Made by a program: the position numbers and the translations under genes. The notes under the pieces were generated by a model, which was not told the origin of the DNA, made no database searches, and worked only from the letters and a program-made list of their open reading frames with translations. Source: Eledone cirrhosa (taxonomy: Eukaryota). Taken from it: a DNA stretch of 64,000 nt. Below, one piece after another: positions 9,621 to 61,921 of the stretch. How positions within the stretch are numbered: position 1 is the stretch's first letter; every line of letters starts with the position of its first letter. Where the stretch lies: contig OZ024741.1 of assembly GCA_964016885.1 (NCBI GenBank), forward strand, positions 130,200,001 through 130,264,000, read 5' to 3'.

Positions 9621-10010
9621 ATTGGTATGGGATGCTTAAAGCGTCCGTATGCAGTAGGCGCTTTGAGCACTCGATGCTCTTACCAAGCAGAGTATAATAT
9701 CACATAAGAAACGGAGAATCAGTGGTGCGACGAATAAAATGTATTAGACATATTACAATCGTTTCTCTGGCGACCACCTCGAGGCACGATCGATGCAATA
9801 ATCGAACCTGACTCTGAAATCGCAAGATCCTCAGATACGTCTGGATTCTTCGAAGCAGAGTGGAAAACTCTGTTTCGAAGAAAACTCTGCGATTTCAGAG
9901 TCAGGTTCGATCATTGCATCGATCGTGCCTCGAGCTGGTCACCAGAGAAACGATTGTAATATGTCTAATACATTTTATTCGTCGCACCACTGATTCTCCG
10001 TTTCTTATGT
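9621..10010 (-). mobile_element. Fold-back HHR-bearing module between (TA)n tracts (arms 9702-9824 / 9888-10010)
   Basis: ~123-bp inverted arms, an inner hairpin at 9846-9882 and an HHR on the minus strand. Confidence 0.8.
9748..9840 (-). ncRNA. Type-I hammerhead ribozyme with extended stem II
   Basis: Minus strand: ACGTAT-CTGAGGA-TCT...AGA-GAAAC-GATT-GTA-ATATGT (stem I 6 bp with one G.U; GUA cleavage triplet). Confidence 0.75.
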
Positions 10011-10263
10011 TATATATATATATATATATATATATATATATATATATATTTATATATATATATATATATATATATATATATATATATATATATATATATA
10101 TATATATATATATATATATATATATATATATATATATATATATATATATATATATATATATATATATATATATATATATATATATATATATATATATATA
10201 TATATATATATATATATATATATATATATATATATATATATATATATATATATATATATATAT
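10011..10263. repeat. (TA)n microsatellite, ~250 bp; one of dozens in the window
   Basis: Read directly from the sequence. Confidence 0.98.
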
Positions 10264-10346
10264 TTGAGATAAGCGGAGCAAGCAAAATTCAAACAATTTT
10301 TAAAAATAAATAAAAAAATATAATTTAAATATTTACCTATTCCATT

Positions 10347-10428
10347 TGCTTTTACCGACGGTTTCACTTCACAAAAGATTGGAAATCCTAGGGACTTCCA
10401 ATGGAAATGTTCAGATCTTCAGAAAGCA
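10347..10428 (-). ncRNA. Type-I hammerhead ribozyme
   Basis: Minus strand: TGCTTT-CTGAAGA-[stem II containing a TTGGAA..TTCCAA hairpin]-GAAACC-GTC-GGTA-AAAGCA, with a perfect 6-bp stem I. Confidence 0.75.
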
Positions 10429-10689
10429 TTTTCCCTACTTAGGACAAAAGTCCCAGGAACGGCAAAATATATTGCCACCTGCCAGCTAACACAGGATCGA
10501 ATGAGCCCGTAAATTTTACCTGTGTATGAACCAGCCCTTAGTAGAAGCAGAAGTAAACATAGACGTGTTGTCTATCATGCCACTAAAAAAAGCAGCTAGG
10601 TAAAACAACGGATTTGTTCGCTACATAACGGAGAATATATAAAAGGAGATCAATATCTCCAGATGTACTAAGTATCCCTGGAAATATAT

Positions 10690-11110
10690 AGGGTGTCTAT
10701 TCGTCCATTCCATTAGTGATCTCACCCGCCTTCATTGCGATCCTATAATTCTCTTTATATTGTCCGTCCATCTGAGTAGAGGCCATCTGAATGATCTTTT
10801 TCACTCATATAGGTACCACTCGACAATTGCACGGTTCCATTGATAATCAGTGAACCGCGTGACATGTTTGGCCTTGACTCCGGTTCTTTTGCTGATATGC
10901 TTGTTTCGGATGTGAATTCTCGGTGAGATTCCCAGCATTGATCTTCCCATGGTTCTTTGTGCCGTTATAAACTGCTGTTCCTCCTTCTTCGTCATCGCCC
11001 ACCTTTCACTTGCATAGATCATTGCAAGTAGAAACGTGATGTTGAATAGATTTGCGCGAGTGGCTTTCTTTACGATTCAATTTCAGCACACGCTTCGCTG
11101 ACTTGAATGC
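10690..11110 (-). pseudogene. RTE-clade LINE 3' fragment
   Basis: MIYASERWAMTKKEEQQFITAQRTMGRSMLGIS..HIRNKHISKRTGVK matches the RTE C-terminal signature (YGSETW..AQRxMERxMLG). Confidence 0.8.
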
Positions 11111-11394
11111 TCTCCAATCTTATTAGTGATGTCACGTCCCATAGTTATAACATATACCTCTGCTTTTCCATCAGCTTCTTCGTCTGCTACGAGAATCTTC
11201 CTTTACTTGCATCCTTCGGACTTGCGACTTTCACCTTTCTGTAGAACTCTTTCAGTGAGTTATGATCTTCATCGTTCGCACAAGGCACTGGTCGCTTCCT
11301 GTGTTGAATGACGCTAACACTGAGACGTCTTGCAATATGCGTTGCTTATCGATCAGGATGTAATCGATCTCATTTGCATTCCAGAGACATATAT

Positions 11395-11595
11395 GACCTT
11401 AACAGATTCAGTGTGACACAATGTGTGACAATGTTGGATCCTTGAATTACAGGTATTACTCATTTTTGCCAACTGTGCGGAACGAAGCAACGTGAAATAA
11501 AACGTCTTGCTTAAGGACACAGCGTACTGTCTGGCCTAAGAATCGAACTCACGACCTTCTGAACGGGAATTGAATACCCTAATCACTGAGCCACT
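11395..11595 (-). mobile_element. tRNA-derived SINE (family B); a related copy lies at 17270-17410
   Basis: Minus-strand head GTGGCTCAGTGATTAGG...GTGAGTTCGATTC, then GTGTCCTTAAGCAAGAC..TTATTTCAC, shared with 17300-17340. Confidence 0.7.
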
Positions 11596-11813
11596 TACCA
11601 AGGGGAATAAATATATAGTTTCTCTCTATAGAAGTGGTAGTTACGTTTGAGAGGAGACTGAATTCTATGAATTGAGGATTATTTACTCTTAATGTTGTTT
11701 AGATCAACTTTAACTCTAAGCAAGCTGAAATATGATCAAAATCATTCCAAGCATGACCATCCTGTATTTTTGTTTGCTATGAGAAAAAATCCTCAACGAG
11801 AAATTTTAATATA

Positions 11814-58844: not shown

Positions 58845-58992
58845 CTAAGGCGGGTAAAATTCCCGAGATCCATGGACGAGTTCTCTCCAGCGGTCTCTGT
58901 CCCTCATTATCGCTGCCATGTCGTGCGTCTCCAACAGACCAGTGTCTGTCCTTAGGGTATCAACATACGTTAACCTTGGTCTTCCTCTTCTA
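58845..58992 (-). pseudogene. RTE LINE extreme 3' end, a second copy of 59919-60065
   Basis: [29 protein letters not shown]. Confidence 0.85.
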
Positions 58993-59199
58993 TATATATA
59001 TAAGTATGTATACGTACATACATATATGTATACAGACGTACAGTAGTATGTATATATATATACATACATGCACACATATATATATGTTCGTATGGATTCA
59101 CCAAACATTTATTATAATGCTCGGTGTGTTTGGAACAGCCGTACTAAGAGTGGGAAATGAAATTTCGTTTCATTTTTCCCAGTATATATATATATATAT

Positions 59200-59318
59200 A
59201 AATATTAAAACAATGAAATTAAACACAAAACTGTTAATTCATAGTAAAAGACATTATTTAATAATGTGTTTTACTATGAATTAACAATTTTGTGTTTAAT
59301 TTCATTGTTTTAATATTT
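59200..59318. repeat. AT-rich palindrome
   Basis: AAATATTAAAACAATGAAATTAAACACAAAA..TTTTGTGTTTAATTTCATTGTTTTAATATTT. Confidence 0.85.
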
Positions 59319-59515
59319 CTATCTTGACTCTGTATCCAATTGAATTATCCTTGATAAAAATGTTTGTATTTTAAACTTTGCTTCACGACATCTTCTACAT
59401 ACGGATTACATTCAGTTCTTTATAAGGTTTAGACCCTACCATTGAGTGGTAGATTTATCTGTATATATATATATATATATATATATATATATATATATAT
59501 ATATATATATATATA

Positions 59516-59921
59516 GTTGTGTATAGTGGTAGCTATGGTGCTTCCATAGGCGGTATGCCAAAATTAGCACTCGATATTCATCAGAGTAGAGTGTAGATAT
59601 TATAAAGAAAACGAAAAATCAGTGGACTTAGTTTATTTCGTGTTACAAATGTTTCGCCTGCATGTAGCTCGAGTCATGGTCCTTGTATGGATCTGGCTGA
59701 TTCTACTTCTGCGGGTTCTTTCAGACACGGGTGTTTCGCCCGGAGCAGATAAAATTTGCTCCGGACGAAACACCCGTGTCTGAAAGAAACCGTAGATGTA
59801 GAATCAGCCAGTTCCATACAAGGACCATGACTCGAGCTACATGCCGGCGAAACATTTGTAACACGAAATAAACTAAGTCCAGATGCATCCCTGATTTTTC
59901 GTTTTCTTTATAATATATCTA
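59516..59921 (-). mobile_element. Fold-back module (59594-59921) with a variant HHR in each arm (59639-59729 minus; 59775-59865 plus)
   Basis: CGTGT-CTGAAAGA...GAAAC-ATTT-GTA-ACACG; central hairpin CCGGAGCA..TGCTCCGG. Confidence 0.8.
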
Positions 59922-60340
59922 AGGCGGGTAAAATTCCCGAGATCCATGGACGAGTTCTCTCCAGCGGTCCCTGTCCCTCATTATCGCTGCCATGTCCTGC
60001 ATCTCCAACAGACCAGTGTCTGTCCTTAGGGCATCAACATACGTTAACCTTGGTCTTCCTCTTCTAGTGTGTACATGTAGGGGCTCCCAAAGGAGTACTG
60101 AGTGCAATGTCAACTCTGGATGTCGGTGAGCATGTCCAGCTAACCTCAGTCTCCTCTGTGTCACTTTTGAGCTGACTTTTGGGATGCTCCCATACAGCTC
60201 TGAGTTTTTCATCCTCAGTGTATACTGATTAATGTTCAGAGCCATCCTCAGCATTCTCGTGTAGCACCCATCCACCATTTGAGTGAGTTTCTTGGTCAGT
60301 GTCCAAGTCTCAGACCCATACAGCAGTGGTATAGTGGAGT
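59919..60340 (-). pseudogene. RTE-clade LINE 3' fragment
   Basis: [43 protein letters not shown]. Confidence 0.9.
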
Positions 60341-61743
60341 TATAATATATATATATATATATATATATATATATATATATATATATATATATATATATAT
60401 ATATATATATATATATATATATATATATATACATATATATATACACACACACATATATATATATATATATATATATATATGTATGTATACACACACACAT
60501 AGGTTGTATATATGTATGTTACCTAGATATATGTCGTAGAGCAACATTGGATTTAAAGGTGAATATAGTTAGTATATAGAGAAACATTATAGGACCACCC
60601 TGTTTGTGCCTCTTCTCTAGGGAGATTTATTGCTCCACTACTCTGAACTTATCCTGCACTCACCTATCTATGTGAAATAAACCCCTTTCTAGGCTTGATA
60701 AGATTCATGTTGGTGTGGGTGGAGCTAATGGCAGGGCGTGCCAAGGTCACTAAGGTCCCTAAGATATCCTTAGTTTTGTTTGTCTCCCTAACGGTGGTGG
60801 TGGAAGAGGTGGCAGTTGTGATGGGGGTATTAGAGTCAGTGGTGGTGATGTTTGTGGAAAGTTACTAAATTTAAAGAAGTCTGCGTCTCGATTCTAATAT
60901 AAATATAGACATTCACACACACACGCAGACATACACACAGACACACACATACGCACACACACAATCATATATATATATATATATATATATATATATATAT
61001 ATATATATATATATATATATACATATTACACGCATGCATATACACATGTGTTTATGTTTATATACATACACACGCACACAGACACAAACATTCACACACA
61101 CACACACACACACATATATATATGTATGAAGTCCTACCTACCAACATACATACATCTATATACACCCCACTAAAAATCAGTTTACAATTTACGTACCAAG
61201 CCAGTACTTGTTCAGGGAAATGTACTTCGTAGTCATTATAAAGATTAACGTGTTGTGTCTAAGCTAGGATAGGATTCCCATTTCTAATCTTTTTGAATCA
61301 TGAGATTCAGGGAAACGTCTCGTCTATCAAATCATTATTTCAAACTGCTTAAACTTAATTATTTTCACGCCAAAGCAGCATACACTCTCAAACGTTTAGG
61401 GCCGAAACACTGGCTTCTTGATGGGGGTTTTCTTTTCTGAAGTCATTGTGCTGTCCAGCTCTCCTAAGAGTTTCTTTCGACTCTCAGTCATTCACATATG
61501 TAGTAGTTGTGCGTTAGCCTATACTTAGCCGATGAGATTTAATAGGATTGAAACATATCTAGAGTAGTTCGTATTATAACTCCCATAGTTCAAAATTACT
61601 CCAGCATGTATATACATGGTGGATGGAAAGAAATTACTTATAAATTTTGTCCTACAAAATGATATATATATATAAGAGGATATATATATATATATATATA
61701 TATATATATATATATATATATATATATATATATATATATATAT

Positions 61744-61921
61744 ATAGGAACCAGTAAGACCCCGACAGCTGAGCTCAAGCCGTTTCGACGGCTTAGCCGT
61801 CGAAACGGCTTGAGCTCAGCTGTCGGGGTCTTACTGGTTCCTATTACCCACTCTACTACCTCAAGTATTGAGTACTTTGGTGCGTTATGGTCCACCTGGT
61901 TCCTTACCACATTTCCTTCGT
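61744..61921 (+). mobile_element. Perfect 50-bp-arm hairpin (1-nt spacer at 61794) built from an HHR 3' half, plus a tail; a relative lies at 51624-51700
   Basis: 61744-61793 is the exact reverse complement of 61795-61844; GCCGTC-GAAAC-GGCT..AGCT-GTC-GGGGTC. Confidence 0.85.

Follow-up and report, generated by a model that had tools for sequence, protein, structure and literature searches.

Penelope-like elements (PLEs) are the closest relatives of telomerase, and how they choose an internal start on their RNA and give rise to tailed and tail-less copies is an unsettled question. In the sole in vitro study of a PLE, the reverse transcriptase (RT) of PAc (Poseidon) begins at two internal sites, which delimit the tail, and requires RNA 3' of both, and no motif is located in the accessible text (PMC11167929). 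We analysed a stretch of 64,000 nucleotides from Eledone cirrhosa (assembly GCA_964016885.1, contig OZ024741.1, positions 130,200,001 to 130,264,000 of the forward strand), hereafter the window, in which a sequence-only reading had reported a YGAGTRC box at a near-fixed distance from the 3' end of otherwise unrelated hammerhead ribozyme modules. We find that the box is one strand of a bulged hairpin that occurs twice in PLEs of the Hydra clade, and that element copies abutting (TA)n end just upstream of either hairpin.

The elements that carry the hairpin resemble the described Hydra-clade PLEs (Craig et al. 2021, PMC8557442) in their C-terminal GIY-YIG endonuclease, CxCx5C linker, DKT and CxxC/CxH motifs, in their (TA)n targets and in the hammerhead within the pseudo-long terminal repeat (pLTR), and the hairpin itself lies within the published consensi. 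The hairpin, its duplication and its relation to element ends are not described in the accessible parts of PMC8557442, where the term 'stem-loop' has no occurrence. An account of the motif was likewise not found in the accessible parts of PMC11167929, PMC4209133, PMC5737381, PMC7229834, PMC13282606 and a 2026 retrozyme preprint. The literature search as a whole, whose scope excluded Repbase, most subscription papers and the supplementary figures of Craig et al., returned no description of it. The hairpin is a real, duplicated and apparently undescribed structured element of Hydra-clade PLEs.

The conserved box is one strand of a bulged hairpin

YGAGTRC forms only the 3' side of a bulged hairpin that reads NCTC-[stem-loop]-2-nt bulge-GAGNRCT. 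A 4-bp NCUC/GAGN stem is followed by a covarying upper stem, a variable loop, a 2-nt bulge on the 3' side that mostly starts with U, and an unpaired RCU. In the E. cirrhosa genome, RCTC lies upstream of the box, followed by the inner stem-loop and two unpaired bases, and one family (families of genomic copies are denoted by letters) has GCTC/GAGC in place of ACTC/GAGT. The common form in metagenome loci is GCTC, a C-G or T-A pair, a variable loop, a TT, TC or TA bulge, and GAGCACT. The inner part measures 6-34 nt in the metagenome families, and the loop reaches ~95 nt in genome family I. The flanks of the boxes had been described as otherwise unrelated. This does not hold, as a complementary 5' strand sits upstream of every box. 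GCATAC, reported after the box in four cases and thought to pair back with it, is seen only in the two related pairs and in 0 of 73 boxes from other organisms. It is therefore ruled out as a general feature, and the pairing partner is instead the NCTC strand upstream.

For the covariation test, each box was anchored by its 3' strand together with the closest CTC, and pairing between the two was no requirement (71 of 76 anchors used). Among pairs outside the selection, Watson-Crick combinations occurred at pair 5 in 60 of 71 boxes vs 37.2 in shuffled sets, at pair 6 in 46 of 71 vs 22.2, at pair 7 in 31 of 42 vs 12.6 and at pair 8 in 16 of 29 vs 7.3. Pair 1 was Watson-Crick in 57 of 71 vs 51.7 shuffled. 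Its letters were G:C in 54 and T:A in 3 of the 71 metagenome boxes. Among the 48 genome matches, for which the search descriptor itself demands this pair, it was A:T 33 times and G:C 13 times. The inner part folded better than its own shuffles in 35 of 40 cases. The base that follows the stem (pair 0) had no support for pairing (26 vs 30.7 shuffled), and a shifted pairing register gave no excess (9 vs 11.2). The three central pairs, C-G, T-A and C-G, were present in 72, 73 and 72 of 73 boxes, in a set whose selection favoured the consensus. In a MAFFT alignment (52 of the 71 boxes), rows with short loops had their 5' strand out of place. Rfam returned no match over the motif in the window or in the 15 of 76 metagenome loci searched, and a known ribozyme or Rfam family was rejected as the identity of the hairpin on these searches.

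The box is also enriched before (TA)n. In 800 kb (8 blocks, all outside the window), 1358 (TA)n flanks carried 40 YGAGTRC matches at 30-69 nt, where 1.72 per 10-nt bin, or ~7 in all, were expected. The reverse-complement pattern had 4 matches at 30-69 nt in the same flanks and a separate peak of 13 at 20-29 nt, and control tracts of CA (308 flanks), GT (308), AG (114) and CT (115) had one match each. A further 200 kb, which brought the blind blocks to 1.0 Mb, added 9 matches at 30-69 nt in 358 (TA)n flanks (~1.8 expected at the 800-kb rate) and 4 more at 70-79 nt. Since they are copies of roughly a dozen families, these matches are not independent events. A structural descriptor of the hairpin matched 113 times in the 1.0 Mb. 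A (TA)n tract followed no more than 200 nt downstream for 65 matches, and for 48 the distance was 30-69 nt. Per 30 genomic copies, the hairpin was present in 30 of family A, 30 of D, 29 of D2, 27 of J and 24 of C. No family I copy had it at short loop length; the predicted fold of one copy (L335) closes an insert of ~95 nt between the two strands.

Element copies end just upstream of either hairpin

Element ends were mapped in six families with run-on copies as references, excluding loci fetched by a family's own DNA query; only 3' ends abutting (TA)n could be detected. With stems as first assigned, 124 of 154 such ends fell within 20 nt upstream of a stem, and the ends left over in families J, I and E lay immediately 5' of further CTCC strands, whose pairing partner is the same box or a distant one. 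After this post-hoc reassignment, 143 of 152 ends lay at -16 to +2 nt from the 5' strand of a hairpin, with a mode of -6, or 49 of 50 when family K was left out. Copy 1 accounts for 71 of them and copy 2 for 72, and these are the two alternative 3' ends by which a PLE tail is recognised. Hairpin copy 1, with its spacer, is thus the PLE 'tail'. Because ends fall just 5' of either hairpin, the near-fixed distance first noted is the spacer to the second hairpin. All nine reported octamers do lie 35-59 nt upstream of (TA)n, but this distance is not measured out from the box.

Metagenome loci provided three tail-less ends 7-11 nt before hairpin 1 and one misfit at 78 nt. A unit-length element (L161:970-3320; OFES01001161.1) starts 3 nt before hairpin 1, has (TA)n on both sides and stops just before the expected recurrence of hairpin 1. 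This is consistent with a single complete round on a template that is circular or tandem.

From these positions we suggest that the hairpin is probably, though by no means securely, an RNA site for the RT-endonuclease that would set internal reverse-transcription starts ~6 nt upstream. The clustering of ends could instead be a by-product: native TA-like patches would be the places where insertions are resolved or microsatellites grow, and the conserved hairpin next to them would have some unrelated role. In favour of this, both hairpin copies are preceded by A/T-rich sequence at positions -5 to -8 from the stem, and ends are seen only where (TA)n follows. However, the ends exceeded a null built from TAT/ATA sites in six of six families. 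In family K, a TA-rich patch inside the loop took only 5 ends vs 48 and 46 before the two hairpins, and the element resumed beyond the TA tract in just 1 of 152 cases. We therefore consider a by-product very improbable.

Hairpins and related elements of the window

The window contains the following hairpins and related elements, at positions counted from its first letter.

9667..9693, minus strand: hairpin copy 1 of family D2, made up of ACTC, an inner stem-loop, a TC bulge and GAGTGC; the element stops at (TA)n near 9621; no ORF link
16839..16873, plus strand: hairpin copy 1 of family C; end at 16930
25060..25170, plus strand: hairpin copy 1 of family I, its loop enlarged by an insert of ~95 nt; the paired strands are ACTCC (25060) and GGAGT (25164); end at 25215
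25298..25339, minus strand: hairpin copy 1 of a family J relative; its box has changed by mutation to GAATGC, and identity to the 58.5-kb module is 77%
28505-30182 (minus), 33331-33361 (minus) and 49990-50108 (plus): negative control, a PLE family of the Neptune/Nematis type that has a minimal hammerhead of its own and (TA)n ends but lacks the hairpin
35650..38004, minus strand: broken Hydra-clade element of family E with an open reading frame (ORF), a hammerhead core near 35713 and a tail-less 3' end at 35650
38098..38145, minus strand: hairpin copy 1 of family K (GCTC/GAGCCC); end at (TA)n near 38062
38341..40726, plus strand: family K element of the Hydra clade, truncated at its 5' end and without a tail at its 3' end near 40726
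43240..43261, plus strand: hairpin copy 1 of family E; end at 43296
54135..54155, plus strand: hairpin copy 1 of family B; end at 54200; no ORF link
56470..56517, plus strand: hairpin copy 1 of family K, second overlooked copy
58401..58450, plus strand: minimal type-I hammerhead of family J with intact core and palindromic stem III, the fold read from sequence
58506..58547, plus strand: hairpin copy 1 of family J with a 32-nt inner part; end near 58598
59567..59592, minus strand: hairpin copy 1 of family D; end at 59516
61850..61875, plus strand: hairpin copy 1 of family A (short fold-back copies); end at 61921

All nine octamers of the sequence-only reading were found at their coordinates and strands. 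Seven of them match the consensus YGAGTRC; those at 25163 (GGAGTAC) and 25298 (CGAATGC) do not. The consensus matches 21 times in the window, of which 7 are the reported sites. A strict form of the descriptor found 6 of the 9 sites, three more window matches far from tracts, and the two hairpins that had been overlooked, both of the GAGCCC type (38098-38145 and 56470-56517). The family I hairpin is the outermost helix in the predicted fold of L335 and has 5 tail-less ends just 5' of it, although its assignment at 25060..25170 was made after the ends were seen. The family E 3' end at 35650 lies just 5' of the expected start of hairpin 1.

As for the description of the sites as hammerhead modules, by our reading only the 58.4-kb module has an intact hammerhead core on the sense strand; the other modules are cut or mutated in the window, where an Rfam search reported no hammerhead. 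Hammerhead cores are present in other genomic copies of some families whose window copies are damaged. They were found in copies of J, E, B and D2, with family B copies having a Hydra-style hammerhead upstream. Copies ended in a microsatellite in 25-30 of 30 per family.

The hairpin is carried by Hydra-clade elements

The ORFs at 35.9-38.0 kb (broken) and 38.3-39.8 kb encode the CxCx5C linker and CxxC/CxH without the CCHH cysteines, and by motif content both elements are assigned to the Hydra clade (PMC8557442). P0001, the family K protein from locus L126, is encoded by a single short ORF of 705 aa, in which an RT and, at the C terminus, a GIY-YIG domain were read. It has the CxCx5C linker, DKT, CxxC and CxH, no CCHH cysteine pair, and RWR in place of RWK; the Hydra-clade endonuclease motifs were also read in the 35.9-38.0 kb copy. 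Pfam gave no match for two fragments from the window. The protein tree, built by a quick method, contains Hydra-type rows only, and the clade placement rests on the motifs. Family K is very abundant and young, with a pLTR of >1 kb: a protein search listed 66,275 first-look candidates, all 150 matches that were scored are at least 91% identical, and several of these have open frames of over 700 aa.

Tandem run-on copies tie families E (L219-L239), J (L250), D (L276), I (L335) and K (L129) to Hydra-type ORFs, and a second hairpin precedes the ATG in each of them, imperfectly in D. Two family C copies (L307 and L317) run on into a second hairpin with a TCTC/GAGA stem, and at a single junction a copy of family C adjoins a Hydra-type ORF fragment. 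One family A copy runs on into a degenerate hairpin 2. The ORFs of J, D, I and E are 33-41% identical to P0001. Because the linked ORFs are merely 31-49% identical to one another, a single diverged family is ruled out as the source of all boxes. Families A, B, C and D2 are provisionally placed in the Hydra clade by shared motif and layout alone.

Of 8000 scored sequences, 1353 were homologues of P0001 at E <= 1e-30. Forty aligned proteins were used to fetch 76 metagenome loci, of which the 61 with a locatable ATG fell into 47 families. A hairpin lay <=60 nt from the ATG in 33 of the 44 Hydra-type families with enough flank and at 61-130 nt in 28 of 36, with both positions occupied in 23 of 36. 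Several families scored as misses carry variants of the box centre. Controls for the ATG-proximal hairpin gave a mean of 0.92 of 44 in shuffles, 9 of 990 ORF windows and 6 of 44 on the reverse strand. The two hairpins lie 54-82 nt apart between the hammerhead and the ATG, with no visible 10-nt periodicity. No relatives were found in the viral contigs searched.

Published consensi carry the hairpin as well. It is present, unremarked, in coral, sea-cucumber and copepod Hydra consensi of the PMC8557442 supplement. By eye, among the six published Hydra consensi, it is exact in Hydra-2_Amil and Hydra-2_Ajap and exact twice in Hydra-1_Ajap. The 5' end of Hydra-1_Crog has a compensated form and its 3' end a mismatched one, in Hydra-1_Obim the hairpin is imperfect, and in Hydra-1_Amil it is not clear. 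The octamer matched 22 times in the accessible supplement, 4 times in Hydra consensi, each with the stem, and 18 times in Naiad/Chlamys consensi. None of the latter formed a terminal hairpin by eye, in a text search that is blind to variants and line breaks, and in 1 of the 18 a stem is plausible, as a lone copy that lies ~400 nt away from the end. The Naiad_Mmer consensus has a lone GCTC...GAGTAC bulged hairpin in its 3' untranslated region (UTR), ~100 nt past the stop codon, which is probably due to chance. The Neptune/Nematis-type family of the window, one family examined up to its end, lacked the hairpin before the 3' end in all copies (0 of 28). The idea of a cis signal shared across PLE families thus survives for distinct families, in the form of a base-paired hairpin present twice, and is confined to the Hydra clade as far as tested. 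The hairpin can serve as a diagnostic tag for Hydra-clade remnants without an ORF.

In the metagenome families, hairpin 2 lies 13-52 nt upstream of the ATG, which would also suit a role in expression: a translational autoregulation operator, a downstream promoter element or a switch based on pairing to stem III of the hammerhead, the ends then clustering through a bound protein or the TA-like patch. Penelope has an internal promoter in this region, and hammerhead stem III in several Hydra families is ACTC-N-GAGT, the letters of the hairpin stem of this genome (PMC8557442 and its File S2), so that alternative pairing between the two is conceivable. Yet hairpin 1 is far from the ATG and marks as many ends (71 vs 72), short families without a nearby ORF keep the hairpin in nearly every copy, and, in those genome families with a core that was read, stem III is unlike the stem of the hairpin. 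Expression control, in any of these forms, appears quite unlikely.

A proposed role in internal initiation

If the hairpin is an RNA site for the RT-endonuclease, the read-through transcript of a tandem copy would contain the hammerhead, both hairpins (1 and 2) and the start of the following ORF. The protein would bind one hairpin and nick a (TA)n target, and priming would take place on the A/U-rich patch ~6 nt upstream of the stem, which could pair with the nicked (TA)n. Use of hairpin 1 would give a tail-less copy. Use of hairpin 2 would give a copy that keeps hairpin 1 and the spacer as its tail, the form seen in the sequence-only reading. A more far-reaching version, which we regard as possible but doubtful, is that of a duplicated RNA template-positioning element, one per subunit of a dimeric RT-endonuclease, which places the start 5' of itself and can close unit-length copies there. 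It would be a retrotransposon counterpart of the template-positioning structures of telomerase RNA and a portable signal by which any RNA could be programmed to insert at (TA)n.

The signal could also be read as DNA. Here the GIY-YIG endonuclease would recognise the element's own tail and nick the TA-rich patch upstream, the ends arising by cleavage or resolution; the forms considered were the quasi-palindrome GAGNNCTC, a cruciform and a hairpin in single-stranded cDNA. The near-palindrome GAGCACTC occurs in 35 of 71 boxes, and the reverse strand matches in 6 of 44. The D. virilis Penelope endonuclease required the tail for plasmid cleavage (as cited in PMC11167929), and some 5' junctions also respect the hairpin: 6 of 9 upstream TA tracts in metagenome loci stop 3-13 nt before it, in 4 families. 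On the other side, a covarying, sequence-variable upper stem across a one-sided bulge, a loop of 6 to ~95 nt and unphased spacing suit a folded single strand over duplex DNA. Only about one box in two retains the palindrome's second half, and the 5' ends of family K are scattered. A cDNA hairpin is also conceivable. Overall, we judge recognition as DNA unlikely.

Several points weigh against an RNA site as well. The wobble pairs (4 sense-strand G.U vs 2 A.C) leave the folding strand, RNA or cDNA, undecided. The three central pairs give no covariation support because they are nearly invariant, the shuffles take no account of relatedness, and the T:A boxes at pair 1 all come from one sister pair of families. 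The figure of 143 of 152 ends rests on post-hoc 5' strands for J, I and E and on a shorter family D reference, and family K supplies 102 of the 152. In family E the second stem is degenerate, with a clear box ~140 nt from the first, while families A, B and D2 have no linked ORF and family C is not firmly linked. PAc belongs to another clade and starts inside the ORF, in an AC-rich stem-loop (PMC11167929). Finally, binding of the hairpin and priming next to it are inferred from structure, position and ends. An RNA site is still the reading we favour.

Other features of the window

A 7.7-kb array of a 21-nt G/T-rich unit occupies positions 1-7697. On the plus strand, positions 19737-24370 hold a non-LTR element that is largely complete, has AP endonuclease, RT and zf-RVT, and is taken by us to be L1/Tx1-like. 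The short interspersed elements (SINEs) of the window, which belongs to a genome of 3.0 Gb, may be octopod-like. At 46919-47294, four 95-nt tandem units contain hairpins resembling the histone 3' stem-loop (Rfam Histone3, below the gathering score). A Pif1 helicase fragment lies beside them at 45933-46382, and the histone-like units are possibly Helitron-borne.

Comparison with known systems

The RTs of long interspersed nuclear elements (LINEs) such as UnaL2/CR1 and R2 recognise 3'-terminal stem-loops, and the epsilon site of hepadnaviruses is a small bulged RNA hairpin. The element described here would resemble both in form, as a small bulged RNA hairpin proposed as an RT recognition site. 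LINEs copy their own signal because it lies 5' of the start. The hairpin in use here would lie 3' of the start and would not be copied.

Telomerase RNAs position their template by structures such as the template boundary element (TBE), CR4/5 and ciliate stem IV. By analogy, a sister RT lineage may likewise use an internal template set by a protein-bound structure, with short complementarity to the primer. Unlike telomerase, there is no repeat synthesis here, and the 15 loci searched had no Rfam match.

Hydra-clade tails are roughly 60-90 nt here (~165 nt in family I) vs 30-40 nt in PMC8557442. The closest functional parallel is PAc, where two alternative 3' ends also bound an optional tail, RNA 3' of the start is also needed and targets are also AT-rich (PMC11167929). 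The PAc study, in its accessible parts, defined no binding motif, whereas the hairpin described here is conserved, covarying, duplicated and located in the 5' UTR, with one copy per end. It offers a covarying candidate of 20-40 nt, conserved across dozens of families that are ~47% identical in protein. Because this candidate maps one-to-one onto the two ends, the question of the internal start becomes testable by point mutants.

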